DNA of 64,000 nt from Malacoraja senta. Lineage: Eukaryota. Shown piece by piece: positions 23,225 through 62,300 of the stretch. The stretch's first letter is position 1. Each line of letters opens with the position of its first letter. Under the pieces are notes generated by a model, which was not told the DNA's origin, made no database searches, and worked only from the letters and a program-made list of their open reading frames with translations. The stretch is from positions 6,202,001 through 6,266,000 of the forward strand of contig CM075995.1 of the NCBI GenBank assembly GCA_038087875.1, read 5' to 3'. The translations under genes and the position numbers were made by a program.

Positions 23225-24310
23225 ACAATGTGGTCATAAATGTAGATGGATTGGTTGGTAAGTTTGCAGGTTACACCAAAATTGGAGTTGTGAACATTGA
23301 GGAAGGCTGTCAAAGGATATAGCAGGATATAGATCAGCTACGCAAATAGGCGGAAAAGGCAGAGGGAGTTAAATCCAAGCAAGTCTGAGGTGTTGCACTT
23401 TGAGGTGTCGAACATAAAGGGGGTGTATACTAGGGTTGCCAACTGTCCCGTATTAGCCGGGACATCGCATATTTTGGGCTAAATTGGTTTGTCCCGCCCG
23501 TGTCCCGTATTTGACTGCTACTACTCGGGTCGAGGGGACTATCGGGTCGGAGCGCCGCGTCCGGCACCGCCTCACCCGTCCCGACGTAGTGCAGCAGCAG
23601 CCCCTCGTCCTTGGCCCCGTCGGTTGGCAGCCCAGCCAGCTGTCCGAGCTTCAGACCTTCGTTTACTGCCGACACCACCACCCGTCCTACTCATGGCCGA
23701 TCATCGGTTCATGAGTTGGATGGGGTGCCGGACTTTGCGCGCAACATCGCGCGGGCCAAAACCCCTCAGCTGGGCTTTGTGTGCAGTCCAGCACCCGGGC
23801 CAACTCATCATTCACCCAGTCACGGCCGAGTCGGTCAACAAATTGCCGTCGGGAATTTACCCCGTATTTTGACCCTTTGTCCCTTATTTGGGAGTGAGAA
23901 AGTTGGCAACCCTAGTGTATACAGTCAATGGCAAGACCCTTAATGGCATTGATGTACAGAGGGATCACGAGGTCCAAGTCCACTGCTCCCTGAAAGTGGC
24001 AAGACAAGCAGAGAGAGTGGTAAAGAAGGCATTTCCTATACTTGATTCATCAGTCAGTGCATTGAGTATAAGAGTCATGATGTCATGTTGCGGCTTTCTA
24101 AGACTTTAATAAGGCCAAAGATGGAGTAGCGGGGCAGTTCTGGTTACCCCATTACAAGAAGTATGTGGAGGCTTTGGAGAGGGTGCAGAGGAGGTTTACC
24201 CGAATGCTGCCCAGATTAGAGGATACTACCTAGAAGGAGAATTTGGATAAACTTAGATTGTTTTCTTTGGAATGTTTGGAAATATATAAAATTATGAGAG
24301 GCGTTGATAC
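23225..24310 (+). mobile_element. Degenerate CR1 fragment interrupted by a hAT element
   Basis: YTVNGKTL..QRD..VQVHCSLKVA motif resumes directly after the hAT TSD. Confidence 0.7.
23431..23914. mobile_element. Non-autonomous hAT-type TIR element (484 bp) with GC-rich, coding-like cargo
   Basis: TIRs TAGGGTTGCCAAC / GTTGGCAACCCTA. 8-bp TSD GTGTATAC (23423-23430, 23915-23922). Confidence 0.9.
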
Positions 24311-25229: not shown

Positions 25230-26160
25230 TCAGGTTTCATCAACGGCTTATTATAAAAGTTCTGAATGTCGTTTCCCTCGACCATCCTGCTGTATTCAGA
25301 ATATGGTCAACCGGTACGTCCATTCTGTCAGCCGTTGATGTAGATGCTGCCCTAGTGGAATGAGATTTAAATGTATTAGTATCTATTCCGGCAGCCTTCA
25401 GTACCTGTTTGAGCCATCTTGAAATGGTTTGGCTCGTTACCCGGCCATGAGGTTACTTGTGGCTGACCCATAAGGCTTTTTCACTCCCTCTGATATTGTG
25501 GGTTGTGTCTATGTAATGTTGTAGATGGGTCACGACACACAACCGTGGCTTTTGTGGGTAGGCCCGGAATACCACCAGTGGATTAGCTGTTCCTGGCCTG
25601 CTTTGCTTCACCAGACCCTGTATGATGAATGTGATATGATCTGGGGTGGTCACCATGTTGTCCAGCCTTAACTTGTGTAGTGACTGGACCCTCTGAGCGG
25701 ATACGAGTGCCATCAACATGAGCGTCTTTAGTGTAGATTGCTCGAGGCTGAGGGATCTGGCTGGTGGCCATTCCCTGAGGTATGTCAGGACCACACTGAT
25801 ATCCCAAATATGGGTATACCTGGGTTTAGGGGCTTGATATCATAAATGTCCTTCATCAGTTTTACCACCAGTGGATGGGATCCCATTGCCTGTTGTCCTG
25901 CTGGTTTGAGATAAGCAGAAAGAGCACTTTGCGCTGTGTTGATGGCACTGTAACTGATCCCTTCATCATGGTGTAGATGGGCCAGGAATTCCAGTACGTT
26001 GGTGGCTGTGGCTGTTGCATACGTTGTCCCTGTTTCCTGGCAGTACTTCTCCCATTTTCTTATGCTGATTCAGTACTGCCTCTTGGTGGATGTTCAAAGG
26101 GATGCCGACATGGTGGTGATGGTTCGTTCGGACAATCCCTGTTCCAGGTAAGATCTATTC
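25230..26160 (-). pseudogene. DIRS tyrosine recombinase (frameshifted)
   Basis: LKTLMLMALVSAQRVQSL, HSTRAASTS and ILNTAGWS motifs. A frameshift appears just before the catalytic FY. Boundaries approximate. Confidence 0.8.
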
Positions 26161-27980
26161 AAAGCCTGCAACCCAGGAGTTTAATTTTCTCATGGCATGG
26201 GTGGCTTATGCCTGATACTGGGTGAGTTAATAATCCTGGATCACTGGGAAAGACCATTGGTGACTCAACCACCATGTCATGTAGAACCGGGAACCATGGC
26301 TGTGTAGGCCAGTCGGGCACCATCAAAATTCCAGAAGCAGAGTCCATCTGTATTTTGCGAAGTACCCGACTGATGAGGCAGAAGGGAGGGAAAGCATAGA
26401 AGAAGACATTTCCCCAATCCAGCGTGATGGCATGTATCGCTGCTGCCTCTGGGTCTGGTTCCCAAGCGACATATATAGGTAACTGGTAATTTCGTCTTGA
26501 TGCAAATACATCGATATCTGGCGTTCCATACTGCTTAATAACTTTAGCAAATACTTTAGGGTTGAACATCCATTCGATGTTATCATTGAATTTGCGTGAC
26601 CTGGTGTCTGCCACTGTGTTTAGCTTACCTGGTAGATAAGTAGCTGATAGCCAAATATGTCTTTCGACACACCATAGCCAAATCACATTGACCAATTTGT
26701 CGCATGATAATGATTTTATGCCGCCCATATGGTTAATATAAGCCACCACCGTAGTATTATCAATCTGTAACCGAACATGCAAGTGCTGCATATTAGCTAC
26801 ATATGCTTTTAACCCATAAAAGGCGCCCAACATCTCTAGATAGTTAATGCCCAGTGTCAGTAGTAATGATGACTCTAGGTTAGTCCATCTACCACCTGTG
26901 CTGGATATGGAGTAAGTTGCTCCCCAGCCTTGAGCACTGGCATCTGTTTGAAGAACTAAAGTAAGGTTAGTGATGATGATAGAGCTGAAACTATGCCAAA
27001 CATTTTCTGCCCACCACTGTAGCTGATATTGCTTCAGTGGGTAATTACATGACACGAACATCGTGACCTGTATGTCGTTTTAGTGCCTGTACCTTTGCTG
27101 TTTGTAAATTTTGATAGTGCAAAGGTCCGCATTGTGTAGCTGGAAATGCTGCTACCATTTTCCCAATCACTCTTGGGACTTGTCGAATAGTTGGTCCTTT
27201 GTTGACCATTAAATAGTTGCATGATTGTGCTAATGCAACCATTTTTATTTTTATTTTTTTATTTTTATTTTCCTTTTGGCAAGGTAACAGTCATATGGAC
27301 TGAGTTAATTGTGAAGCCCAGGTAGTCCATAATAGTGGATGGCTTCAACTTAGATTTATCTGGATGTAGGATGAACCCCAGAGTTTCGAGGAGCTATTTT
27401 GTAGCTGATACTGCTGCCACAGCCAATTCCATCGTTTCCGCTACTATCTGAATATCATCCAGATATGCCATGACAATATGTTTCTTAGTCTTGCCATGGC
27501 TATTTTCAATATTTTGATGAATAATCTTGGGGCTGAGGTTAGCCCATTGGGCAATGCGTTGTACTGCCTCAGCTGCCCCAACCAGATAAATTGTAGGTAT
27601 CTGCAATGATCCTTGTGTATGGGTATTAGATAGTAAGCATCTTTCAGATCAATGCTTGCCATGAAGTATCCTTTGGAAATCAGTTGTTTGGCAGTAACAA
27701 CTGTCTCCATTTTGAAATGTATATACTCAACAAACTTATTTAGTGATGTTAAGGCAATGATGATGCGACATCCACCATCTTTTTTGGTTTTATTTGATAC
27801 AAATTCCAAAGGTTCATGTTTGGTCTTTTGGATGACCTCTCCACTAATGCTGTTGAGTATATACTTATCACACGTGACAGTAACCCATGCTTCTTTAAAC
27901 CAGTGTAAGCTCCCCTCTGTTAGTAAAGCACCCTTATTCTCTATATGCTGGCAGGAACCAGACCCACCTACCTCCATGTT
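26159..27980 (-). pseudogene. DIRS pol: RT, RNase H and DNA-adenine-methyltransferase-like domain (frameshifted)
   Basis: ASIDLKDAY, LPNGLTSAPR, AYLDD (RT); TDASAQGWG, INYLEM, IDNTTVVAYINHMGG (RNase H); DIDVFAS..N, YAFPPF (MT). Confidence 0.88.
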
Positions 27981-27999
27981 CAGTGGTGTTTCTTTTGTT

Positions 28000-29150
28000 T
28001 CCTGATGTTTTTGTAGGTTTTGCTTGTCTGACGTGCTGGCGATGTTGGGGGGTGGCGCATTTTCCATGGGGTCCGCTGTGGGCCCTGATCTAAAAAAGAT
28101 CTTTTGGGGATAAAATGCGGTCCCCGAGCTTTCACCAGTCCCATATTGAGGACGTCGACTGGTGGATGCCATGGGGTGCTGCCGCTTGGGTATTGTAGCT
28201 CTTGGTTTGCTCGTCCCAGGGCCTGCCCTCATGAGGCCGAAAGATGTCGCTGCTTCCTCCATGTCCCTCAGTTTTTTGTTGAGGTCTTTCCCAAATAACA
28301 GAGCATCCGTCTCTGCAGCTGGGGCTCTGCACAACCCAGCAACTTTGGGATTGAGGGCAGGTCTTATGTTTCCCCGCCGGAGATTGTGTATTGCACATCA
28401 GTGCCAGCACATCCTGCTGGCAAGTATCCATCTCCGTACTTTGCACAGAACGAGCAAAGGCTGTAATGGCCGACGTCCGGAGCCTTAGGATCCGCTGTAG
28501 CTTGATTTCATGGTTACACATGTTTGACCCCACGTGACCCCAGATCTGGCTGTTCACAGTCTTCACTCTGAGGGCCTCACAGTTCTCTGGTGCTGTATAA
28601 AATTCAAGCACCTCAAGAAGTACCTTCTCCTGCAAGGGCTTATTTGACAGATGATTGATGCTGGCCGCCATGTTTGGTTCCAGCGGTCTTCCAGCACGTG
28701 GGGTTGCTACATAGCGGTCCACCACACCCAGCAGCTCTTCCTGCTCCTGCACCCCTTGCATACTGCCGAATTCTTCCGCCAGCCCCTTTCCAGACCAGCC
28801 CAACCCTGGTCACCAATGCTAGCCTCCAGTAATGAGGGAGCAGAGGGCAGTGCCCAAGACACTGTGGAGGAGGTGCCTGACCTACCTCCTGCGAGAACGC
28901 TCCTTCTGCGTAGCTCGCTGGAGCATCTGCTCCAAGAGCTGTTGTAAGCTCTGGCGGCTGTCTCTCCTCCGTGTAGGTGGAAACATGTCCCCATCCGACA
29001 AATTAGACATTACCGGCCGATTGCTCTCATGGCTTTGCTCCCTGTCCGCTGTGCAGGCATTAGCGGGACTGGGCTCGGCTCGGTCTCGGGGATAGCGGAG
29101 CGCTCTATGAGCGGTCCTGCCGCCTGTTGCTGCCCCCCTGAGATTAAACG
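28000..29150 (-). pseudogene. DIRS ORF1 (gag-like), disrupted
   Basis: Upstream position. Fragments APENC..LRVKTVNSQIW and LLFGKDLNKKL lie in different frames. Boundaries approximate. Confidence 0.6.
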
Positions 29151-29978
29151 CTCCTCTGGTGGAGTTGAGCTGGGGCAGTTCTGTTGGAGAGTCTTCTGGT
29201 GAGTGTACTTATTTGCTAAGAACACCCACACTCTCTTTCTCTGTTAGACTTAGTTGAATATACTCACCCAACGGTCCGTTTCAAAATGCAGCCGGAGCGC
29301 CTTCCTCCAGCTGCCGCCGCTGTTGCACTGCTGGCGTAATGCCGCGCCTGCGCACTGAGCGGGTTCTTCACGAAGTCACTCACGTGACTCCGAAGTAAAA
29401 TAGATCGTCAAAATGCTAATATCTCTGGCACATCTATAGGCCTCAACATATTTCTCAAAAATACCTGCTGTCAATGGAAGTGAACAATTATGCTAGAGAT
29501 ATGACAGCATTAGAGCACATATTTTAATTTTCTGATTATCAGGAAACTGCTGAAATTAGTGTAAGTTTGCCAGTAAATCACAAGAACATTCTACTACAGT
29601 AGGTCTTCAAGGTATTATAATCAGGTCACCAAAGCACTGCAACAAATTGGCATTCATCAAAACTATTCATAACTCCCCTGAGAAGAAAAAGCATAATGTA
29701 TTTTGCTGCCAATCAATTTTATAGCTCATAGGACTAAGTGGAAGGAATAGAACTATTTTATGTTAAGTTGGCTATATGTACAAACATGGCTATACAGTGG
29801 TTTATGTTGTCAGACGCTTTGAGTAAGGTACTTCTTGCATCCATATTCTATAGTTATTTTCCCCCCACAATAGTAAGATTGAAATATATAGCATTTGTAC
29901 GAAACAGCCAACACAATCCTTCATTCAGTATTAAATACATTTGATTTCACAAGTTAAATGGGGAGTTTCATTACCTAC

Positions 29979-30125
29979 CCTAGTAAGATCCATGCCAAGT
30001 TTCAGTTGAGAAAGGAGGTGTAATATGACACTCCGTTGATCATCCAGGACTCCCAAATCATCTTCAACATTCTCTTCACTATCTGTTATCTCGTCTTCAA
30101 GATTCATTGGTTCAGGACATTGATG
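29979..30125 (-). CDS. OSBPL10: Internal coding exon (147 nt, phase 0/0) of an oxysterol-binding protein-related gene, most likely OSBPL10 (OSBPL11 not excluded)
   Basis: Minus strand reads ttttctttttatcag|CAT CAA...ACT AGG|gtaggt. Translation: HQCPEPMNLEDEITDSEENVEDDLGVLDDQRSVILHLLSQLKLGMDLTR. QRSxILHLxSQLKLGMDLT is the start of the ORD lipid-binding domain in OSBPL10/11. 'LGV..DQRS' and very long flanking introns favour OSBPL10 over OSBPL11 ('LGAVEEQRS'), recalled from memory. Confidence 0.88.
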
Positions 30126-30541
30126 CTGATAAAAAGAAAATTAATTACTTATATAATTGGATAGGAAGGAAATCAAAGATTAGACAGTTTGTACTAAGCA
30201 CTACTTTTTTTACACTTGTCCCCCTTTTGTAATGAATTTCCCTTTCAACAGGATAGGACAGGTTTGGAGGGATATGGACCAAGCACAGGCAAGTGGGACT
30301 AGTGTAGCTGGGATATTGTTGGCCGGTGTGGGCAAGTTGGGCCGAAGGGCCTGTTTCCACACTGTATCACTCTAAGACATCAAAAACAATATTATTGGAA
30401 GAGGAATTAATTAAGAGAGACACTACAGCACAGTTTCGTTATTTTGATGAGATCAGCCATTGCCGTATAAGGGAAAAGCAATGAACTCACTCTGTATGAC
30501 TGCAATCTCCATGATCTCACATCCATGAATGAATGACTTAA

Positions 30542-35424: not shown

Positions 35425-36746
35425 GACAAATAGTCAACATGGATTTGTGCCTGGAAGGTCATGTTTGACTGATCTTCTTGAATTTTTCGAAGAGGTTACT
35501 AGGGAAATTGATGAGGGTAAAGCAGTGGATGTTGTCTATATGGACTTCAGTAAGGCCTTTGACAAGGTTCCTCATTGAAGGTTGGTTAAGAAGATTCAAT
35601 TGTTGGGTATTAATGGTGGTGTAGCAAGATGGTATTCAACAGTGGCTGAATGGGAGACCAGAGAGTAATGGTGGATGGCTGTTTGTCAGGTTGGAGGCCT
35701 GTGACTAGTGGGGTGCCTCAGGGGTCTGTGTTGGGTCCACTGTTGTTTGTCATGTACATCAATGATCTGGATCATGGTGTGGAAAATTGGATTAGTAAGT
35801 ATGCAGATGATACTAAGATAGGTGGTATTGTGGATAATGAAGTAGATTTTCAAAGTCTACAGAGAGATTTAGGCCATTTGGAAGAGTGGGCTGAAAGATG
35901 GCAGATGGAGTTTAATGCTGATAAATGTGAGGTGCTACATCTTGGCAGGACAAATCAAAATAGGACGTACATGGTAAATGGTAGCGAATTGAGGAATGCA
36001 GTTGAACAGAGGGATCTAGGAATAACTGTGCATAGTTCCCTGAAGGTGGAATCTCATGTAGATAGGGTGGTAAAGAAAGCTTTTGGTGTGCTGGCCTTTA
36101 TAAATCAGAGCATTGAATATAGAAGTTGGGATGTAATGTTAAAATTGTACAAGACATTGGTGAGGCCAATTCTGGAGTATGGAGTACAATTTTGGTCGCC
36201 TAATTATAGGAAGGATGTCAACAAAATAGAGAGAGTACAGAGGAGATTTACTAGAATGTTGCCTGGGTTTCAGCAACTAAGTTACAGAGAAAGGTTGAAC
36301 AAGTTAGGTCTTTATTCTTTGGAGCGCAGAAGGTTAAGAGGGGACTTGATAGAGGTCTTTAAAATTATGAGCGGGTTAGACAGAGTTGACGTGGATAAGC
36401 TTTTCCCATTGAGAGTAGGGAAGATTCAAACAAGGGGACATGACTTGAGAATTAAGGGACAGAAGTTTAGGGGTAACATTAGGGGGAACTTCTTTACTCA
36501 GAGAGTGGTAGCTGTGTGGAATGAGCTTCCAGTGGAAGTGGTGGAGGCAGGTTCGATTTTATCCTTTAAAAATAGATTGGATGGGGATATGGACGGGAAA
36601 GGAATGGAGGGTTATGGTCTGAGTGCAGGTAGATGGGACTATGGGGAAGAAAGAAGAAGGGGGAAAAAAAAAGAAGAAAAAAAGTGTTCGGCACGGACTT
36701 GAAGGGCCGAGATGGCCTGTTTCCGTGTAATGGTTATATGGTTATA
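35425..36746 (+). mobile_element. CR1 (same family as 17747-21609), 5'-truncated
   Basis: 350-aa ORF 35650-36702 with PQGSVLGP and YADD; ggttatat tail. Confidence 0.93.
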
Positions 36747-46443: not shown

Positions 46444-47929
46444 TGTTATGGTATCTGCCTCAACTACCTCCTCTGGCAGAATGTTCCATATACCCACTAC
46501 CCTTCAAGTAAAAAGTTGCCCTATTTAGGGTTATTATTAAAGGGTTCCTATTAAATTATTCCCTCTCACCTTAAACCTATGGTTCCTGATTCCCCATCTC
46601 TGGTAAAAGACTGTGCATTCACCCTTATTCCCCTCATGATTTTAGCCACCTCTATAAGATCACCCTTCAGCTCCTGCAATTAAAGGAATAAAGTCGTAGC
46701 CAGCACTTTGGCTAGAATACACAAGTCTCCAGTCAAGAAATTCTCTGGGCCCATATTATTTGCGACATCAATTGCTCCAAACCATTTATTTATATCAGTG
46801 GAAGGAATAAAATTGAAGACTGGTCCTGTGCTGATGGAAAACTCGCACAGAAGCAGAGATGGATCATTTGCTTGGCACTTGTGACAGAACATAGTTGCAA
46901 CTGCTTTAGCTCTGCGTTTACTATTCACGTGCTGTTCCTCTGCCATTTTTGTGATGGAGCTCTTAGAACCTTTGGTTCCTATTAACAGTTTAATTCCCTC
47001 AATGTGGTTCCCACTATTGCATGCTATTTATCATGCATATAGCCTTCTGTAGCAGCTCTGTCAACTCATGTTTGTGTTCCTTGATGTTGCTCCTGGCATC
47101 ACTTCTATACTTATTGAATCATGGTTGATCCCTTATTTTTTATATATCTGCTGAACAATACAAACAGACTAGCAAGCCCATTTTGCACAACACATTTAAC
47201 TTTATGAAACATTTAATATAAATAATTTAGTATTAATTTCCTGCACTTAAAATCTTTCGTAGACTTAATTGTGACCGTGAACTGCATTTGTCAATTTTTT
47301 GAGCTCATGGTACAACATTGTGGTAGTGATTGAATTAATACAAATTATAGTTAATGTTATTAACAGTTTCAGTTCCTATCTTTCAATATTGAAAAGTAAA
47401 CAGTAAACTATACATAAGCTCAGAGTTTTACCCAGTTCTTGTCTGCCATTCTTTTTCCAACACCTTATCACAAAGAAAATAACTTGAGTCAATGGCATGC
47501 ACCCATTTAAGCCAAGTGAAATGGATTGTGTATACTTGGTTTTCATGATGGATTCACCACACAGCAAGAAAGTGATTACTAAAGCATAAAAATAAATAAT
47601 GTTTTCATGAGAGAAAGCAGTCTGAGAAAGGTTTGATGCCAATGATTTGAAGGAACAGAGAATAAGTTAGATCAGGATATAATTTTAACTTTAAATAGTA
47701 AGGAATAGACAAATTAAGTTAGTTTACAGCAGTTAGTTTATTTGCATTGTGAAAAATCAGGAGAGGAATTTTTTACTTAGTCACAATATATGTAATTACC
47801 AAGCTCTTCAAATGACAAGCTTTTCATTTATTCTGTCCAATAAGGCTGCGAGAGGACTCCTCTGTATGTGGAAGTAACTTTACAGAGAAATATTAGAGAA
47901 ACAGGTTTTTCAGCCCACCAAGAGGTAGA

Positions 47930-48545: not shown

Positions 48546-50239
48546 TTAGTTTATAGCTTTAGAACATACGGTGCGGAAACTGGCCGTTCGGCCCAAAGTC
48601 CGTACCGACCACCACACTAACACTATCCTACACACGCTAGGGACAATTTACAATTATACCAAGCCAATTATACCCGTCTTTGGAGTGTGGGAGGAAGCCG
48701 GAGATGTAAATGTATAGGATGCTGGTTTAAACCAAAGATAGACATAAAACGCTGGAGTAAGTCAGCGGGTCAGTCAGCATCTCTGGAGAAAAGCACTAGG
48801 TGACGTTTCGGGTCAAGACCCTTGTTCAGACCTATTAAAGAAGGGTCTCGAACCAAAACACCAACTATTCCAGCTACTCCAACTTTTATTGTTTATTTAT
48901 TGTTTCTTTTGTTATTATTTATATTTTGTGTTTAAGCTTTCTATTGAAATACTTAATAATGGATAGAACTTAAAATCATGAAATAAAAATTTAGTTTGCT
49001 CACCTATTTTAGCGATGTCTCATTCTGTAGTCCTTCCCATTTTTTTTTCACTGGTCGCAATTGTTTTTAAAATTCAAACGCGATTATAATGACCCTGGTG
49101 TGGTGGGTTAGGTGCCGACATTTTGTAAGGGAGCTTAGAAATCAGGAAGTGTCCCATAGGTCTTATAAATAATTTATTTTCTCTCTTTTTCCCCCAAATC
49201 TTGAACATATTAAATTTTAGTAAAATTTTGGTCGATTTTGATCACAAATTAGCTCAAAAGGATCATAGGTAGGTCCATTTTTAATGCTGTGGTATTTCAT
49301 TATGATTTAATAACTTTCAAATTTGTCTACCCATGACACAGGTTGGTACCCTTATTTACGGAAACACCCATATATGAGCGACTTTAGTGGTGTTTTAGAG
49401 ATGTTGAATTCTCATTAAAGTTTAAAAATAATAATTTTAGAAGTTTTTTTTATCACCGCTGAATTCTTTTGAATATCAGCAACATCCATTATAACAGGGC
49501 TGCCAACTTTGGGTGAGAGTTGGGAGTGAGAAATTGCGAGAGACCAAGCCCGAGGGAGCATAGCGACTGGGGTGGGGGGGGTTGAAGGTGTCCCCCCTCC
49601 CATTGGTACGGATCTTTCGCATTTTTCAGCTTGAAATTGTGCAATATGGTGCATACTTTAGCGAGCCTTTTAACTTACACTTGAATGCAATATATATGCT
49701 TTAAATTGGATTGGAGCATTTTTGAAAGGGGGGGGGGGCTGAGCGATCACTGATCACTGGCCTTGGGGGTACCCGGTGAGGGAGTGGAGCAACCGAGTGG
49801 GGAGAGGGTGTGGAGGAAGGGTGTGTCCCCTCCCAGGGTAGGAACGTTTTGAAATTTGATGTACTAAAATCATGTTTTAGTGCATTGTAGAAGTATGATT
49901 TCAATGTTTTTTGTATGAAGTATTTTTAAGAGGTAACTTTTTAAGAGGTAACTTTATCCACACAAAGGGTGATGAGTGTATGGAACAAGCTGCCAGAGGA
50001 GGTAGTTGAGGCAGGGACCATCCCAACATTAAAAAAAAAGTTAGACTGATACATGGATAGGACAGATTTGGAGGTATGGACCAAAAGCAGCTAGCGTAGC
50101 TGGGACATGTTGGCGGGTGTGGGAAAGTGGCGCAGAAGGGCCTGTTTTCACATTGTATCACTCTATGACTACATTATACCTCCACCATGCATGAATGCTT
50201 CAAAATCAAGTGATCGAGTTTTATTGCCATATACTCAAG

Positions 50240-50577
50240 CATAGAAACATAGAAAATAGGTGCAGGAATAGGCCATCGGCCCTTCAAGCCAGCACTGCCA
50301 TTCAATATGATCATGGCTATTCATCTAAAATCAGTACCTCTTTCCTGTTTTTTCCCCATATCCCTTGATGTTGTTAGCCCCAAGAACTAAATGTAACTCT
50401 CTCTTGAAAACATCCAGTGAATTGGCCTCCACTGCCTTCTGTGGCAGAGAATTCCACAGATTCACAACTCTCTGTGTGAAGAAAGTATAATCTCAGTCCT
50501 AACTGGCCCCCCCCTTTATTCTTAAACTGTGACCCCTGGTTCTGAACTCCCCAACATCGGGAACATTTTTCCTGCAG
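50240..50577 (-). mobile_element. CR1 3' tail fragment
   Basis: (catagaaa)n tail and CR1 3' UTR. Confidence 0.85.
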
Positions 50578-50681
50578 TTGCAGTAAGTGAAAATCTAGCA
50601 GGCAAGCAGGATGCTTTCTCCAACCACCCCCATTTGAAGTCCACTATCTTCCACCGTTTCTACCCAGTGCTTGGTACTTAC

Positions 50682-50819
50682 TTCCAGCAGCCACTAGTTG
50701 TCCTCCTGGATGCACCGAGCCACAGCCTGATCTATGCCGGTCACCTGGGCGAATTTGGCACAGAGACTCTCACGGCAGTGGCGCAACGCTTCCGACGCCT
50801 TCCACTGAGGCTGCTCCAT
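50682..50819 (-). pseudogene. TDP2: TDP2-like (tyrosyl-DNA phosphodiesterase 2) first coding exon fragment, UBA-like N-terminus, with in-frame stop
   Basis: gccATGG Kozak at 50819. Translation MEQPQWKASEALRHCRESLCAKFAQVTGIDQAVARCIQEDN*WLLE is followed by a GTAAGT donor (50681-50676). It resembles human TDP2 RRLLCVEFASVASCDAAVAQCFLAENDWEME. No further TDP2 exons seen. Confidence 0.75.
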
Positions 50820-51058
50820 GGCCGGAGCTGCAGTGAGCGACTCGCCAGCCCGGCAAACACTCGCCAGCCCCGCTCCCCGTCCGTATCTGTCTCCGCCGCT
50901 GCTTCTGCTTCCAACACCCATGGCCCATGCAGTTGATATGAGTTTTGAAATTTTCGTTGATCACAGAATTTCTCATAACAGAGCGACAGAAATTTGTGAT
51001 CAGCGTGAGAATTTGACGAAATGCGTGATTCTCAGGCTCAATGCATTCTCAGGCCCTG

Positions 51059-51372
51059 CCTCTCTATCCCCCTCTCTCCCCCCCCTCTCTCTCTCCCTCT
51101 CTCTCCCCTCTCTCCACCTCTCTTTCTCTCCCCTCTCCCTCTCCCTCCCACCTCACTCTCATCCCTCTCTCTCCCCCTCTCTTCCGCTCTCTCTCTCCCC
51201 CTCTATCTCTCCCCTCCCCCCTCTCTCTCCTTCTCTGTCTATCCTCTCACCCCCTCTCTCTCCCGTTTCCCCCTCACTCACTCCCCTTCCCTCTCTCTTC
51301 TCTCTCCCCCCTCTCTCTCTCTCTCCTCTGTTCCCCTCTCTCTCCCCTCTCTCTCCCCCCTCTCTATCCCCC
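51059..51372. repeat. CT-rich polypyrimidine low-complexity tract
   Basis: (ct)n and ccctct repeats running into the gap. Confidence 0.9.
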
Positions 51373-51572
51373 NNNNNNNNNNNNNNNNNNNNNNNNNNNN
51401 NNNNNNNNNNNNNNNNNNNNNNNNNNNNNNNNNNNNNNNNNNNNNNNNNNNNNNNNNNNNNNNNNNNNNNNNNNNNNNNNNNNNNNNNNNNNNNNNNNNN
51501 NNNNNNNNNNNNNNNNNNNNNNNNNNNNNNNNNNNNNNNNNNNNNNNNNNNNNNNNNNNNNNNNNNNNNNNN
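51373..51572. other. Assembly gap (200 N)
   Basis: Run of N. Confidence 0.99.
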
Positions 51573-51614
51573 AAACTAGGGAAATTTGGCATGTCTCCAG
51601 TGACCCTTAATGGC

Positions 51615-52605
51615 ATAGAAACATAGAAAATAGGTGCAGGAAAGGGCCATTTGGCCCTTCGAGCCAGCCGCCATTCATTGTGATCATGGCTGATCATCCA
51701 TAATCAGTAACCCATGCCTGCCTTCTCCCTATATCCCGTGATTCCGCTAGCCGCAAGAGCTTTATCTAACTCTCTTTTAAATTCATCCAGTCAATTGGCC
51801 TCTACTGCTTTCTGTGGCAGAGAATTCCACAAATCACAACTCTCTGGGTGAAAAAGTTTTTTCTCATCTCAGTTTTAAATGGCCTCCCTTTTATTCTTAG
51901 ACTGGGGCCCCTGGTTCTGGACTCCCCAACATTGGGACCATTTTTCCTGCACCTAGCTTGTCTAGACCTTTTATAATTTTATATGTTTCTATAAGATGCC
52001 CTCTCATCCTTCTAAATTCCAGTGAATACAAGTCCAGTCTTTCCAATCTTTTCTCACATGACAGTCCCGCCATCCCGGGGATGAACCTTGTGCACCTATG
52101 CTCTACTCCCTCAATAGCAAGGATGTCCTTCCTCAAATTAGGAGACCAAAACTGCACACAATACTCCAGATGTGGCCTCGCCAGGGCCCTGCACAACTGC
52201 AGAAGGACCTCTTTACTCCGATACTCAAATCCTCTCGTTATGAACATGCCATTAGCTTTCTTCACTATCTGCGGTACCTGCATGTTTACTTTCAGTGGCT
52301 GGTGTACAAGGACACCCAGGTCTCTTTGCACTTCTCTTTTTCCAAATCTGACACCATTGAGATAATAATCTGCCTCCTTGTTCTTGCCGCCAAAGTGAAT
52401 AACCTCACATTTATCTACATTATACTGCATTTGCCATGCATCTGCCCACTCACTCAACCGTCCAAGTAAGCCTGCAATCTGCAATCATCGTCTTCACAGT
52501 TCACACTGCCACCCAGCTTTGTGTCATCTGCAAATTTGCTAGTGTTACTTTTAATTCCATCATCTAAATTATTAATATATATTGTAAATAGTTGCGGTCC
52601 CAGCA
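51615..52605 (-). mobile_element. CR1 3' portion, joined at ~52605 to an oppositely oriented upstream CR1 segment
   Basis: ORF 51897-52484. A plus-strand upstream ORF2 segment runs 52606-52854 and resumes at 56778-57140. Confidence 0.85.
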
Positions 52606-53043
52606 TCTAAAGGGAGTAAGAGGCAACCATGGCTGATAAGGGAAGTTAGGGATGGAATAAAACTAAAAGAAAAAGTGTATAACATAGCAAACAGTAGCGG
52701 AAGCCAGAGGATTTGGAAACTTTCAAAGGGCAACAGAAGGTAACAAAACGGGCAATATGGGGTAAAAAGTTGAAGTACGAGGGTAAGCTGTCCAAGTATA
52801 TAAAGGATATTAAAAGCTTCTTTAGGTATGGTAAGAGAAAAAGATTAGTAAAGATTAAGGCTTTGGACACGCTAGAGGCAGGAAACATGTTCCCGATGTA
52901 GGGGGAGTCCAGAACCAGGGGCCACAGTTTAAGAATAAGCCATTTAGAACGGAGACAAGGAAAAACTTTTTCACACAGAGAGTTGTGAGTATGTGGAATT
53001 CTCTGCCTCAGAGGGCGGTGGAGGCTGGTTCTCTGGATGCTTT

Positions 53044-56000
53044 TTTATTTTTTATTTTTTATTTTTTATTTTTATTTATTTTTTATTTTTATTAGAAGTA
53101 AGTACAATTGTATACAATCATATTTTCATAATACATTTTATGTACAGCTTCTTATTTTTTTAATTTTGTAATAAAGAAGAAAAAGAAAAAGAAGTTAGAT
53201 AATGAAGAATAGAAAAATGTGAGATATATAGTGTGTGAAAAAGAAAAATAGAGAGTGAAAAAAGAAAGTTAAGAAATAGAAAATAGAAGAAAAAGAGTAA
53301 AAGAAGAAAAGAGAAGAAAAGAAAAGAGAAGTAAGGAGATCGTATTTATAATCTTGACCATTCCTCACCCAGTCACGGATTAGCTTTTACACTTGTGTTG
53401 CACCATATGTTTCCAAAAAGACGACAAATGGAGACCAACTCGTTATGAATTGGTCAAATTTATCTATTAGGAGGAATCGCCTTTCCTCAAAATGTGCGGT
53501 ATCCAACATACTTGCAATCCACATTTTGAGCGTTGGTATTGGTGTATTTTTCCAAAATTTCAATATTAATTTTTTTGCTATTATTAAACCATAATTAAAA
53601 AATAACTTTTGAGATGGGTTCAATTTGTTCCCATCTTCCATTACCCCAAATATAATCAATTCATTATTGGGTTCCATTTTTGTCTTAAATAATTTTGTGA
53701 ATATTTTGAAAATATCACTCCAAAATTCATGAAGTTTTATACAAGAAACAAAAGAGTGTGTTATAGTTGCGTCTTGGGTTAAACATTTATCACAAATGGG
53801 GGATATATTTGGATAAAATTTATTTAATCTTGTTTTTGAGTAATATAATCTATGTAAAATTTTAAATTGAATTAGATTATGTCTTGCGTTAATCGAACAT
53901 TTGTGAATGTATGTCAAATACTTTTCCCATGTAGCCTTCGTAATTTTTATCAATAATTCCCATTCCCACTCTTCTCTAATTACCTCGGTCGCAGGTAAAT
54001 CTATATTTAAGATACTATTATATAAATATGATATTAATTTTTGTGTATCAGCTTTAATATTCATTACTTCTTCTAGTAAATCAGGAGTTATTTTTTAATC
54101 TCCCTGTATGTATGTCTTCAAGAAATTGCAAATCTGAAAATATTTAAAATAATGAGTGTTTTTCAATTTAAATTTTAATTGTAATTGTTGAAATGATAGT
54201 AAATCTCCCATTTCATACATATCCCCGATCCTTTTAATTCCTAAACTTTCCCATTGATTATATATTTTATCCATCATAGATGGTTTAAATAAAGGATTAT
54301 TCGCTATCGGTGTTAACAATGATAGGTTTCTTAGTTTTAAGGATAATTTTATTTGTTTCCATATTCTTATTGTATCTTGTATAATTGGGTTTTTCTTATA
54401 TATTGTATTGTTCATTTTTTTCGGGGAGAAGAGGATTGTTCCTATATTACAAGGATAACAATCCTCTTTCTCCATTTCTATCCATTCTGTCTGTTGGGTT
54501 GAACTATCCAACCAATAAATTATATTCTTAATATGTATTGCCCAATAGTAATACAAAAAATTTGGGAGTGAAAGTCCCCCGACATCTTTTGGTTTACATA
54601 AGTGTTCTTTTTTAATTCTATGTGATTTATAATCCCAAACAAAATTAGTAATGTTAGCATTCAGTTTAGAAAAAAAATATTTTGGTACATATACTGGTAT
54701 AGATTGAAATAGGTATAATAACTGTGGTAGAAAGCTCATTTTAATAGCATTTATTCTGCCTATTAATGATAAAGGAAGTGTTTTCCAAAATTTAATCATT
54801 ATATTAAGTTTATTTATTAAGGGTATAAAATTGGCGTTGAATAAAGCTTTATGTTTTCTAGTAATCTGTATACCCAGATATTTAAATTTTTCTGTTGCTA
54901 TTTTAAAGGGGAATTTCAATAAGTGTTTAGATTCTTGAGGTTTTAACGTCATAATTTCACTTTTGTTCCAATTTATTCTATATCCAGAAAAGGACCCAAA
55001 TTATTAAATTGAATAAATTTGGTATGCTCGTTTGTGAATTTGTTATATATAACAGAATATCGTCTGCATACAATGAAATTTTATTATTTGAGTCCCTAGT
55101 ATTATAACCCTGAATATTCGGATGGCTTCTTATACTTTCAGCCAGAGGTTCTATCATAAGGGCAAATAGCAGGGGTGATAAAGCACATCCCTGCCTATTA
55201 CCCCTTGATAATTGAAATTTTTGAGATAACATGCTGTTAGTTAATATTCTTGCCATCGGTTTATCATATAATAATTTCACCCATGCAATAAAGTTCTCCC
55301 CCATATTAAATTTTTATAATACTTTGTATAAATACTGCCATTCTACCTGATCAAATGCTTTCTCTGCGTCCAAAGAAATAATTGATAAGTCTTCTTCCTC
55401 CACTTTATGTGAGTACATTATATTAAACAGGCGTCTCAAATTATTAAATGAATATCTTTTGGGTATAAACCCCGTTTGATCAGGGATTATCAATTTACTA
55501 ATATATTTGCTTAGTCTTCTGGCTAAAGTCTTTGCTAGGATTTTCTGATCTGTATTTAAAAGTGGTATAGCTCTATATAAGCCCAGTTCCTCTAGATCTT
55601 TATCTTTCTTTGGAATAAGCGTAATAGTTGATTCTGCTAATGTTTCAGGTAATTTATTTTCTTTAAAAACGTAAGTATATAAATTAAATAGATAGGGGGT
55701 CTTTATCTCATGAAATTTTTTATAAAATTCATTACTAAAACCATCTGGTCCCGGTGTCTTACCATTTTTCAACGATTTTATTGTTTCACCTATTTCTTCG
55801 ATTGTAATTTGCGCTCCTAGTTCTTCTTGTTTCAAAAGGTCAAGTTTTGGTAGATTACAGTTATCTAAAATTTTTTAAATTTTACTATCTTCTGTTTTGG
55901 TTTTTGATGTGTATAAATTTTGATAAAATTGAACAAATCTTTTATTAATATCTTTAGGTAGTGTTAGTAATTCACCATTATCGGATTTAATTTTATTTAT

Positions 56001-56591
56001 AGTATTTTCCTTTTCCTGTTTTTTCAGTTGACGAGCCAACAGCTTATGTGGTTTGTCACCAAACTCAAAATGTTCCTGTTTTGTAATTTGGAATAATCTT
56101 ATTACTCTTGCAGAGAGAATTCGGTTAAGTTTAAATTTCAGTAGTATTATCTTATTATGTTTATCTATAGTGGGATCTTTAGCATTGTCTAACTCTAACT
56201 GTCTTATTTCTTGTTCTAACCACATTTGTTCTGTTTTATTCTTCTTATTTTGAAAAATTTCATATGAAATTATAATTCCTCTAATAAATGCTTTAAGTTT
56301 CCCATAGTAAAGAAGGTGAGGTACCTGGTGTATCATTTATCTCAAAAAATAATTTCATTTGTTGTTTCAAGTATTGATAACCCTGTAAATCATTTAATAT
56401 ATGTGTATTAAACCTCCAAAAATTTTTACTGAAAAAGTCAACGGAGAGTGATCAGAAATACTACTAATATGGTATGTTGGGTTAATTGTATATGGCATTA
56501 ATTTCCTATCCACTAAAAAATAATCAATTCTTGAATATGTTTTATATACCGAAGAGTAAAACAAATATTCCCTTCCTGCTGGATTAGCAGA
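53044..56591 (-). mobile_element. 5'-truncated L1-clade LINE (ORF2 with frameshifts) with poly(A)-like tail
   Basis: SRIDYF/SDHSP (endonuclease end), LDAEKAFD, RQGCALSPLLF, YADD, CDKC..H..C knuckle. T-rich tail at ~53041-53092. Flanked by a 39-42-bp direct repeat. Confidence 0.93.
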
Positions 56592-57962
56592 TCTGCCTCA
56601 GAGGGCGGTGGAGGCTGGTTCTCTGGATGCTTTCAAGAGAGAGCTAGACAGAGCTCCAAAAGATAGCAGAGTCAAGGGATATGGGGAGAAGGCAGGATGA
56701 TCAGCCATGATCACATTGAATGGCGGTGCTGGCTCGAGGGGCCGAATGGCCTACTCCTGCACCTATTGTCTGTTGTCTAAAGACAAATGTAGGTCCCTTG
56801 AAGGCAGAAACAAGTGATATTATTATGGGGAACAAGGAAATGGCAGAAGAGTTGAACAGGTACTTTGGTTCTGTCCATCAAGGAAGACACAAACAATCTC
56901 CCAGATGTACTAGAGGACAGATGATCTAGGGAGATAGAGGAACTGAAATAAATTTGCATTAAGCGAGAAATAGTATTGGGTAGACTGATGGGACAGAAGG
57001 CTGATAAATCCCCAGGGCCTGATGGTCTGCAGCCCAGGGTACTCAAGGAGGTGACTCTAGAAATCGTGGACGTATTCGTGATCATTTTCCAATGTTCTAT
57101 AGATTCAAGATCAGTTCCTGTGGATTGGAGGGTAGCCAATATCCTTGCTATTGAGGCAGTGCAGCGTAGGTTCACGAGGTTAATCCCTGGGATGGAGGGA
57201 CTGTCATATGAGGAAAGATTGGAAAGACTGGGCTTGTATTCACTGGAATTTAGAAGGATGAGAGGGTATCTTATAGAGACAAGGTCTAAAAGCTAGATGC
57301 AGGAAAAATGTTCCCAATGTTGGGGGAGTCCAGAACCAGGGGCCACAGACTAAGAATAAAGGGGAGGCCATTTAAAACTGAGATGAGAAAAAAACTTTTT
57401 CACCCAGAGAGTTGAGAAGGCAGGCACGGGTTATTGATTGTGGATGATCAGCCATGATCACAATGAATGGCGGTGCTGGCCCAAAGGGCCAAATGGCCTC
57501 TCCTGCACCTATTTTCTATGTTTCCACTCGCCACTGCCTGCCATTCTGACAGGGACCCAGGCATGTTGGCCTTCATTGCGAGAGGATTTGAGTTTAAGAG
57601 CAAGGAGATCCTACTGCAGTTGTACAGGGCCCTGGTGAGACCACACATGGAGTATTTGGTGCAGTTTTGGTCTCCTAATTTGAGGAAGGACATTAGTGAT
57701 GTTGAGGGAGTGCAGCATAGGTTCACCAGGTTAATTACCGCGATGGCACGACTGACATATGATGAAAGAATTGGTCGACTGGGCTTGTATTCACTGGAAT
57801 TTAGAAGGATGAGTGGAGATCTTATAAAAACATAAAATTCTTAAAGGATTGGACGTTAGATTTTACCACTGATTTTAGATGATCAGCCATGATCATATTG
57901 AATGGCGGTGCCGGCATGAAGGGCCGAATGGCCTACTCCCGCATCTATTTTTCTATGTTTCT
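56592..57962 (+). mobile_element. Cluster of CR1 fragments
   Basis: KSPGPDG, LVRPHMEY motifs and three separate 3' tails. Confidence 0.8.
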
Positions 57963-57964
57963 TA

Positions 57965-58520
57965 CAAACTTCTTTAAATGCACCATAGAAAGCATACTCC
58001 TGGGTCTCCTCACAGCTTGGATTAGGGACAGCTTTGCCTAAGACCACAAGAAATTGCAGAGAGTTATAGGTGTAGCCCAGTCTATCACACAGATTAGACT
58101 TCCCACCATTGACTCCATCTACACTTAATTCGGAAAAGCAGCCAACATCAAAAGAACTGTACCACCCTGGTCATTCCTTCCTCTCCAGCTCTTGTTTGGC
58201 AGAAGGTACAGAAGCTTGAATGCACATAGCACTAGACTCAGGAACAGCATCTTCCCTTCTGTTATCAAGCTTCTGAACGGTCCTTCCATAAGCTAGAGTA
58301 CAGTCTGATTCACCTCAACCCCATTGTGGTTATTGGACTTTGTCTACAGAACTGATGTGCTACATTGCTGGGAACTATATTCTGCACCCTTTACTCTATC
58401 AATTGTACTTGAGTTTGACTTGATTGTATTTATGTATGGCATATCTGATCTGTTAGATAGCATGCAAAACTAAGCTTTTCACTGCTTCTTGGTACATGTG
58501 ACAATAAACCTAAACCTAAA
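57965..58520 (+). mobile_element. Rex1-type LINE 3' fragment
   Basis: CTIESIL and LQRV..VAQSI remnants; acaataaacctaaa tail. Confidence 0.65.
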
Positions 58521-59381
58521 TAACTCTTTCCAAGAATTGGTCCCTAACCTAACATATCGAATGGTTTCTTCATGTGCCGTAAGATTCTGAGAAAAATTAT
58601 CTTTTGAAATTGAAATGACAGGACCTTGCTACAGGAGCTAAAATTAATAGGGAAATTATGCAAGTTAGAAACCAATAAAATTGACACTTGATCTGAAAAT
58701 ACAGCTCAGAAACAGCAAACTATTAATAATTTGATCCAGTTTTCAAGATTGAAAATAGGTTTGTTAACATTAGTACTTTACCTCATTTATGCTTTTATCC
58801 CTCCAGAATACAAACTCCTTTCCCCCATTCAGTGACCTTAATTATATCACAGATATGCAATGTTGAAAATTCTATATAAAGATATCCTTATTAACAACTC
58901 TCCTAAATTAATCCTTCACTCCTCTAAACTCTTAAGCTTGTTGCCATGTGGTATCTTCACTTTCATTGCACACATAAGCACATTGCACTGGAAGGTCCAC
59001 CAGACATTGCTAAAATCCTTTTTAGCTTCTAAAACTAAAACACAAATGCACAAAGTAACTGGTACTATAACATTTAAGAGACATTTCAACAGTTACAGGG
59101 ATAGGATAGTTTTAGAAGGTTATGGGCCAAGTGCTGGCAGTTGGGACTAGTGTAGATGGGGAATATTGGTCGGCGTGGGCAAGATGAGCAGAAGGGACTG
59201 TTTTTATGCTGTATGGACTCTAACAGGAGAGTTAAAATAACATTGGGTGCAATTAGAGACAACAATTTACAATTAATAATAGATGGAAAGGAAAAGCTGG
59301 CATCAATTAAAGTTAAAGAAATCATCCAATCCAGATTCAGACTGTTAAGGGAAGCAAATGGATAGAGATTCATGGGATTCC

Positions 59382-62300
59382 CTGTCCCACGGAAATGATT
59401 TCCACATACATCGACTCCATCCTATCCAGGGCTCGAAATTAGCGGTTGCCCGGGTGCCACTGACCACTCAAAGCGCCGCCGGGCAACCTAAACACCGAGT
59501 CATTTTGCCCGGCTTGGCAACCAGATGCTGGTTTGTACCGAAGTTAGACACAAAAAACTGGAGTAACTCCGCGGGTCAGGCAGCATCTCTGGAGAAAAGG
59601 AACTCAGCGTTTCGTGTCGGCTTTGCGGGGCAAAGATACTAGGTGCGGGGTGAAGAAGGGTCGGAGCGAATGATGGGCCCTGAACAGCGGCAGCAGCGGC
59701 CGCGACAGCGGCTCCATCTCCTCCTCCTCCCGCCTCCCGTCTCCCGCCCGCCCTGATAAGGGCCTCTGCTTGTAAATCCGCTAACCGCGCTATCAAAACA
59801 AACCCTCCCGCACGCCGAGGCAGGGGGAAGGGAGGGAGGGGCCCTCGGCGTGCAGGAGGGTTTGTTTTGCGCCGTTCTCGGATTTACAAGCAGAGGCCCT
59901 TATCAGGGCGGGCGGGGTGCGGGAGGAGGAGGAGATGGAGCCGCTATCGCGGCCGCTGCTGCCGCTGTTCTGGGCCCGTCATTCACTCCGACTCGTCTGA
60001 AGCAGCTGCACCAAAGATCTTATAGCTATAGGATCTCTGAGCTGCACCGCTCGGCCCCGCACGTTGCTGTTGGCTGGCGGAGGAGGGAGGCGGTGGCGAG
60101 GAGTTCCCAACGGCCAAGGCAGCGGGGCGATGTTGTCCGAGGAGCGCTGACCTTCCTTCCTGCCCACCTCGCCCCCCCTCTCTCTCTCTCTTGTACGCCC
60201 CCTCCACCCCCTTATCCTGGGACCCCTCCACTCCATCCCGCACTGATCCCCATTCCCGCCTCTATTCAGTCCTCACTGACATCCCGTGCTCCCCTCCACA
60301 TCTACCCCCCCCCCATCTATTCATCCTGTGCTGATCACCCTATCCACCTCACATTGATTCTCCTGCCACCCCCCCCCCCATCCATCCTACACTGGTTCCT
60401 CAATTCACCCTGTACTTACCCCTTTCCCATCCATCCTGCACTTCTCCTCCATCCATCCTGCACAGACCCTCCGATCCACACTGTACTGACCCTCCCATTC
60501 ATCCTGCGCTGATCTCCCCCCCCCCCATCCATCCTGTACTGATCCTCCCATTCAAGAAGAATGGGGGGTACAGTCTGAAGAAGGGTCTCGACCGGAAACG
60601 TTGCCTATTTCCTTCGCTCCATAGATGCTGCCTCACCCGCTGAGTTTCTCCAGCACTTTTGTCTACCCCCATCCATCCCGTACTGAACCCCCCCATTCAA
60701 CACCACTGACATCCCCGGTGCTCTCCCCTCACAATGTTACCTACTCCAACCAACACGTACTAATTCACCTGCCTCAATCCATCCATTCTGCACCGACTAC
60801 CTTCTAACCCTCCCCCCCCCCACCCCCACCATCTATCCACCCTGCACTGATTCACACACACACCCTCCCTGACCCTATTGTGCTGGAAATGTCTTCAGAG
60901 CGAACATTGACTATGTTTGATAATGGAATGCAATCAAATGTGTTTTAATTCCCAATGTTATTATTTGTTTTAATCCATAAAGATGGATTAATTAAATTGT
61001 GAACACGTGAAACATTAAAACCGCAGTGTTCGATTGTCACTGCTGCCATTGACACGTTATTACAGAATTCATTTTAACGGCAAATCAATGCTCTTAATAT
61101 GGAGTATCAGTACTGTAGTTATTTAATGACAACATTCACAACTATACGTACGCATATATGTTACCATGGTCCAGGATTTATTGACACAGGTTGATCATAC
61201 GCTGAATAATCCAACCACATTTTTGTTTGGAAGTGGAAAGAACTAATAGAAATTGCATTAATTGCAATGTGTAAAAAGAGTTGAGATACTGTCTTATAAT
61301 TTGGCTGCATGTCATTGTGGGATATATCATGTCTTGATTGGTGAATATGTTTAGTTTGTGACTTTATTTGAAGCAGAAATAATATGTGAATGCTTCATTG
61401 AGTATAATTCCGACTGGTAACTACGCACTTCGTCCGAGCACATTATCGCACGCATCATGCAAGCCATCTTAAATTACCACCTAAACTGTCATTTGGCAAC
61501 CTAAAAAGCTGCCAAGGTTGCCCGGCTGGCAACAGGGAAAAAAAGTTAAGCGAGAGCCCTGCTATCCCCCCTGGTCCAATCTCTCCCGATCCATGTCCAA
61601 GATACCTCACATGCCTTTTGTCTCTTTAATGACATGCTTTCCGAGCCCCCACTCCCTAATCTGTACTATGGACTTTCAGTCACTGTACACCTCCACCGCC
61701 TTGCAGCCCTCAGTTTCTTCCTCGACCGCAGAACCATCCAATTTCCCTCCACTAACACTCTACTCCGCCTACTTGATCCACACCCTCAACAACTTCTCCT
61801 TTGACTCCTCCCACTTCCTCCGTCCAAGGCGCAGCTATGGGCACCCGCATGGGCCCCAGCTAAACCTGCCTCTTTCTAGGGTACGTTGAACAATCCGTGT
61901 TCCAGACGTACACTGGCCCTATCCCCAAACTCTATCTCCATTACATTAATGCCTGCATTGGTGCTATCTCCTGCACCCATGCAGAACTCATGGACTTCAT
62001 CAACTTCATCACCAATTTTCATCCTGCACTCAAATTTACTTCGACCATCTCCGATACCTCCCTCCCCTTTCTTGATCCCACAGTCTCCATTACAAGAAAC
62101 AGACTATTGACTGACATCTGTTACAAACCCACTGACCCACAACTATCTCGACTAAACTTCTTCCCACCCTGCTTCCTGCAAAGACTCTATCCCCTACTCC
62201 CAATTCCTCCGTTCTACCCCGCATCTGCGTCCAAGATGAGATGTTCCATACCAGAACATCCAAGATGCCCTCATTCTTTAGGAAACGGGGGTTCCCCTCT

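Follow-up and report, generated by a model that had tools for sequence, protein, structure and literature searches.

A 64,000-nucleotide stretch of the genome of the skate Malacoraja senta (GCA_038087875.1, contig CM075995.1, positions 6,202,001 to 6,266,000 of the forward strand; hereafter the window) contains three elements with related terminal inverted repeats (TIRs), which we label A (23431-23914), B (from 49495), and C (59427-61561). Families B and C are, with high confidence, multicopy Pack-TIRs that carry 5'-end DNA of host genes, TDP2 in B and PPP4R4 in C; they were likely spread in trans, with the cargo likely to be a neutral passenger. For both families we find a host parent, capture at the DNA level and in the direction from host to element, many independent insertions, and stepwise remodelling of the captured DNA. 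Positions are those of the window unless a contig is named; the window itself is C19:6,202,001-6,266,000 of the 1.94-Gb assembly in which all own-genome searches were made.

The original prediction described a single Pack-TIR system of non-autonomous hAT transposons, based on shared (C/T)AGGG(C/T)T ends and a GC- and CpG-rich interior in each element. The interiors are as described, with a GC content of 0.63-0.65 and a CpG observed/expected ratio of 0.73-0.92, against window averages of 0.42 and 0.38. The ends are indeed related, but the elements belong to three distinct repeat families with target site duplications (TSDs) of 8 bp (A), 6-7 bp (B), and 5 bp (C). The check that had been proposed, a search for many TIR- and TSD-flanked copies together with a parental locus that lacks TIRs and runs into further exons, gave exactly this for B and C. 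For A, the insert proved foreign to the transposase-bearing element, yet a host parent was not found in the own-genome searches.

Element B comprises the following parts in the window:

49495..49947, plus strand: left end with TIR; the target site lies directly before it, and the partner site is not in the assembly
49948..50681, minus strand: cargo, part of TDP2 intron 1 with the same CR1 long interspersed nuclear element (LINE) fragments as the parent; splice donor at 50676-50681
50682..50819, minus strand: cargo, coding part of TDP2 exon 1 (UBA-like domain)
50820..50930, minus strand: cargo, TDP2 5' untranslated and upstream part
50931..51058, plus strand: internal right end with subterminal repeats and a degenerate TIR, without TSD
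51059..51572, plus strand: CT-rich spacer and assembly gap (N, 51373-51572)

That the cargo of B is a TDP2-like first exon, as predicted, is confirmed by UBA-domain matches, the splice donor, and alignment to a parent locus. The cargo peptide matches the UBA domain of human TDP2 (E 0.002) and skate TDP2 (E 4e-11). With the skate protein as query, TDP2 is found at one locus (C19:4.67-4.71 Mb), where seven exons cover residues 1-360 and are 78-97% identical to the Leucoraja erinacea protein. The window cargo matches this locus in 857 of 942 aligned columns (91%); the alignment begins in the 5' untranslated part, spans exon 1 with its donor, and takes in about 0.7 kb of intron 1. The LINE fragments, which we take to be CR1 from the repeats in the window, are the same set in the same order as in the parent intron. 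Relative to the parent, the window copy lacks a 290-bp intron piece and 14 codons of exon 1, and the exon contains one stop codon. No B-type TIR was found in the 9.9-kb stretch that holds TDP2 exon 1 or in the two stretches adjoining it. The exon encodes a domain that human TDP2 also has, so capture proceeded from host to element; intron 1 DNA and the splice donor are retained, so the B copies are not retrocopies. At C19:4,603,402-4,611,049, 60-70 kb downstream of the full gene, at least the final two exons of TDP2 occur a second time, with 80% and 93% identity to the skate protein.

Position 51058, previously taken as the end of B, falls at the degenerate internal right end, and relatives continue past it. 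Complete relatives, 2.1-4.5 kb in total, extend through the CT-rich spacer and then a second piece of TDP2, which is truncated, to the outer end. The spacer of the window copy enters the assembly gap where the second piece and the outer end are expected, and the outer end was not found in 50901-59000; the window copy has thus lost its outer end at the gap. Both outer ends are present at 24 of the 28 B loci examined, and the TSD of these 24 is exact in 17 (6 bp in seven, 7 bp in nine, and 8 bp in one), has one mismatch in four, and is absent or unclear in three. Element length ranges from 1.2 to 4.5 kb, and a simpler 1.6-kb form exists in which the exon is undeleted. A 22-mer from the 3' end of the cargo exon has 570 exact matches in the genome, including the parent (control, 0), a number that is a lower bound on the copies.

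B copies fall into two groups, which diverge from the TDP2 parent by 9.5% and 8.7% and among themselves by 2.8% (the young group) and 5.8%. The junction between cargo and end is also bridged by contigs from sequencing runs of three other organisms, which argues that the family is common to other species. The active amplification originally proposed therefore finds no support, since even the young copies are 2.8% apart and the others more. Screening 299 other loci (1.15 Mb) turned up just three right ends of the B type, all in one element. Inside a TDP2 intron, at C19:4,687,337-4,691,275, lies a 3.9-kb element whose ends are of the B type and whose TSD is 6 bp. It has two internal right ends and other GC-rich interiors, one of them tandemly duplicated as in B, and we regard it as a candidate fourth Pack-TIR.

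Element C is complete in the window:

59427..61561, plus strand: element C, a 2,135-bp non-autonomous TIR element with an exact 5-bp TSD (59422-59426 and 61562-61566)
59643..61146, plus strand: cargo, comprising the PPP4R4 CpG island, a C-rich repeat stretch, and the beginning of the intron that follows the first coding exon
59654..59998, no strand: inverted duplication holding the ATG at 59935; not in the parent or older copies
60012..60039, no strand: 28-bp palindromic mini-insert with an 8-bp target duplication; not in the parent or older copies

The cargo of C matches C2:14,205,597-14,207,140 in 1,056 of 1,172 columns (90%). An exon inside this parent span corresponds to the first coding exon of PPP4R4, with 97% identity to the skate and shark sequences in 13 of 23 hits, all 23 of which are named PPP4R4; upstream, in the opposite orientation, lies a DEAD-box helicase gene, presumably DDX24. 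The left TIR of C was not found in 39.6 kb around the parent (C2:14.205-14.210 Mb). The 280 bp that hold the PPP4R4 exon are absent from the window copy (at 60864/60865) and from a long form of C, which is otherwise collinear with the parent from its base 93 over 5 kb. Intron and upstream DNA are retained, showing that capture occurred at the DNA level. The earlier reading of the cargo as a promoter plus ATG holds for the promoter part, the PPP4R4 CpG island; the ATG at 59935 lies in the inverted arm, is absent from the parent, and is not the PPP4R4 start. A palindromic motif in the PPP4R4 island (C2:14,207,15x), which we take to resemble an RFX X-box, recurs in long C (L210:1480-1493) and is absent from the short C of the window.

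Both ends were found at 20 of the 25 C loci examined, with an exact 5-bp TSD in 18, 6 bp in one, and 7 bp in one; a few copies share flanks and are hence dependent. Copies are 2.1-3.4 kb or longer, and the older form is 6 kb. An older copy without the hairpin and the 28-bp mini-insert, used as a query, identified 30 loci, 12 with a longer upstream part; five of these longer contexts are 6-kb C elements with one common flank. A marker found only in long C gave 87 candidates, of which 40 were scored and six contexts examined; the one scored site on a large contig is the parent region. The other 39 of the 40 scored hits are on small unplaced contigs (C314, C2575, C3252, C4408, C5563, and others), on which one long-C insertion has been multiplied with its flanks, indicating a large segmentally amplified region. 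The intermediates suggest that about 5 kb was captured, that the coding exon was then lost, that deletion shortened the element to about 2.2 kb, and that the hairpin and mini-insert came last; this order is likely. One locus (L146) had suggested that C is a deletion derivative of a hAT element, which was ruled out because the transposase sits in a separate nested element. That element (L146:3225-8113) is a hAT with an 8-bp TSD and matches to DUF4371 and the dimerisation domain; a LINE interrupts it, and the C copy around it is the older one used as a query above.

Element A differs from B and C in that the origin of its insert could not be traced to a host gene:

23431..23914, plus strand: element A, a 484-bp non-autonomous hAT derivative with 13-bp TIRs and an exact 8-bp TSD (23423-23430 and 23915-23922)
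23527..23843, no strand: GC-rich insert with a fold-back rearrangement; absent from transposase-bearing and empty relatives
23844..23914, plus strand: last codons of the start of the transposase (BED finger) and right end

Among 33 distinct two-ended copies of A, the 8-bp TSD shows one mismatch or none in 22 (exact in 7). The ends are 94% identical over 65 bp to those of a 2.8-kb transposase-bearing element (L364). This 2.8-kb form has tblastn matches, with weak scores, to 5 of 30 hAT loci (best E 6e-6), and presumably belongs to the Blackjack lineage. In the window copy a deletion at a 4-base repeat joins the right part to the insert. Longer variants have the start of the transposase as their last part. 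A search with this start gave 86 matches, and the 30 loci examined include four reaching into the transposase, empty forms about 0.5 kb long, forms carrying a 0.9-kb element nested at base 104, and forms in which the GC-rich insert replaces the left part of that nested element. The nested element (L339, L348, L357), which has a TA target and a long interior and which we take to be Tigger-like, is possibly another capture. The insert was found in none of eight transposase-bearing, empty, or nested relatives, which argues that it was gained and that the window copy arose by later deletion.

The description of the A cargo as codon-biased coding sequence was not upheld, as no reading frame matched a host protein. 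Seven frames and proteins had no Pfam match at cut-off, a phmmer search against 1.84 billion proteins gave 0 hits, an atlas search gave no usable hit, and four PDB searches reached at best E 0.5. Likenesses to CDC25, JmjC, and PDZ were only assumed by us and found no support in the searches; the sole match in a homolog search was another copy of the element. We nevertheless consider A probably a third Pack-TIR.

The TSD lengths of all three families lie within the range of the hAT superfamily, in which TSDs measure 8 bp or, for certain named subgroups, 5, 6, or 7 bp (PMC12730594). There, 5- and 6-bp TSDs define hAT5 and hAT6, placed in the Blackjack lineage. C, with its 5-bp TSD, and the B copies with 6-bp TSDs resemble these subgroups, and the ends of both resemble those of A; unlike them, B mixes 6- and 7-bp TSDs, and the search turned up no transposase by which B or C could be placed in a tree. 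The assignment to hAT is shown for A alone, whose ends are shared with a hAT-like transposase element, while for B and C it reflects end similarity and TSD length. Miniature inverted-repeat transposable elements (MITEs) are about 500 bp or less and present in many copies; the term, also used in the original prediction, suits A (484 bp) but not B or C, which are too long.

The GC-rich islands might instead be the transposons' own promoters or 5' regions, with no host DNA involved. A 7.6-kb C-type element in which the island lies upstream of a hAT transposase, and the long form of A, with the transposase start downstream of the insert, would fit this. The transposase in the 7.6-kb element, however, belongs to another element, nested inside it and bounded by ends and an 8-bp TSD of its own, host parents have been identified for the B and C islands, and the transposase-bearing relatives of A lack the insert. 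We therefore judge this explanation very improbable overall; it survives for A alone, whose insert could also stem from another repeat. Still less credible is that the copies are segmental duplicates or retrocopies. The common flank of the five long-C contexts on unplaced contigs does point to segmental duplication of that sub-group, and some short C copies also share flanks, but most B and C copies have differing flanks and a TSD of their own, which largely refutes this account, and the retained intron DNA and donor of B are contrary to retrocopying.

A third possibility is that the cargo has been kept for a function, the promoters taken up and the TDP2 exon together with its donor driving transcripts or aiding spread. 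A consensus splice donor is kept in 29 of 30 B copies and the frame is open in 24 of 30, and CpG-rich interiors recur in all three families and in the B-ended element in the TDP2 intron. On the other side, the distinct changes in the 29 ungapped copies among the 30 comprise 38 that alter an amino acid, 3 stops, and 8 silent ones (41 non-silent to 8 silent, where the expected site ratio is 3.2 to 1). CpG sites change at a rate of 0.045, against 0.013 elsewhere, 3.5 times faster and as in methylated DNA. From these substitution patterns, the TDP2 cargo appears to decay neutrally as methylated DNA, with no purifying selection on the peptide. Open frames are expected because divergence is low, and the TDP2 piece faces against the left end of B and has no downstream exons. 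We consider a function for the cargo unlikely, although less so than the two preceding alternatives, and prefer the reading of B and C as Pack-TIRs with a passenger cargo.

Several observations weigh against parts of this reading. Among 30 hAT loci (30 of 150 scored) there is no transposase-bearing element with B or C ends; one of the 30 has a C end, and its transposase belongs to an element nested in a C copy. The Pfam matches of the A transposase are below cut-off (BED, E 0.006; hAT dimerisation, E 0.009), and a TIR-independent host parent of the A insert was not found, only element variants being among the matches listed (41 of 42 matches were fetched in one own-genome search). First-look searches gave 2,635 candidate matches for A, 1,999 for B, and 2,000 for C, and the 40 scored per family all matched; the figures for A and C are thus candidates, with 40 each scored, and no copy counts. 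Finally, with 40 of the 87 long-C marker candidates scored and six contexts examined, further TIR-less copies of that region are possible.

How the host DNA entered the elements may be envisaged as follows. A broken element would be repaired on an open CpG-island template, copying host gene DNA in by gap filling or template switching, the two models under discussion in a survey of Pack-TIRs in animals (Tan et al. 2021, PMC8277862). Transposases encoded at other genomic loci would then move B and C, the presumed movers being hAT6- and hAT5-type enzymes of the Blackjack lineage, respectively. We favor this scheme, and hold its capture step with moderate confidence. Capture may also be biased toward CpG-island 5' ends. 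A underwent the same kind of event, a hAT derivative gaining foreign GC-rich DNA. The remodelling itself can be read from intermediates, from long to short C and from simple to composite B.

The same survey lists 281 animal Pack-TIRs, of which 4 are multicopy, and none in elephant shark; examples include Pack-hAT-N8_XT of the frog, with the CAPSL 5' untranslated region and three derived copies, and Ssk-FB4 of the fly, and its multicopy cases tend toward high GC and are located far from the parent (PMC8277862). B and C resemble these in carrying host DNA inside a TIR element, with a traceable parent and distinct TSDs. The two ends and TSD by which a Pack-TIR is recognized occur in all three families (at the frequencies given above), and a host parent of about 90% identity without element ends exists for B (91%) and C (90%). 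They differ from the surveyed cases in that one skate family has at least about 570 copies, two have parents, and remodelling after capture was stepwise. The survey filters call for a unique top hit, a length ratio of 80-120%, and no repeat within 100 bp of the parent stretch (PMC8277862). Here paralogues outscore the parent, the B cargo is about 74% of the parent span, and one breakpoint of B and one of long C lie within a repeat, so that filters designed for young single events would drop families such as these. Rice has about 3,000 Pack-MULEs with many different cargos (PMC5861414). With plant Pack-MULEs and Pack-TYPE elements the skate elements share a preference for GC-rich gene DNA, some promoter sequence, and many insertions, whereas the plant elements belong to another superfamily and kingdom, and in the skate few captures were each amplified many times. 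Our literature search found no description for skates or for TDP2 or PPP4R4 cargos; Repbase, Dfam, subscription journals, and bioRxiv supplements were outside that search, and a consensus entry may exist.

Other features of the window include likely host-gene exons on the minus strand at 29934-30140 (presumably of an oxysterol-binding-protein family member; PDB E 0.75, no Pfam match) and 46683-47027. A retrotransposon on the minus strand at 25456-29300, which we assume to be DIRS-like, matches reverse transcriptase (E 2e-5) and, faintly, a methyltransferase. Two inverted copies of a 698-bp sequence, separated by 16.9 kb and 97% alike, lie at 18083-18780 and 35658-36355, with more flanking pairs.

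Family B occupies about 570 sites or more, far exceeding the low copy numbers reported for gene-capturing transposons of animals. The published view is that gene capture by animal TIR elements is mostly single-copy and independent of transposition (PMC8277862); the two skate families, which have traced parents and lie within 12 kb in a single window, represent the opposite regime in a vertebrate. The dated series of B and C intermediates provides material for testing capture models. In practical terms, repeat masking in this genome would conceal the genuine exon 1 of TDP2 and promoter of PPP4R4, and short reads derived from there would map to many places. The spread of these elements likely scatters promoter-like DNA through the genome. 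It is conceivable, though we put this forward tentatively, that skates possess a counterpart of the Pack-MULEs in which hATs of the Blackjack lineage time and again take up and spread CpG-island promoters and first exons, some of which start chimeric transcripts. If so, such families would escape existing surveys, their cargo being absorbed into repeat libraries, and hundreds to thousands of copies would act as portable promoters and splice donors.

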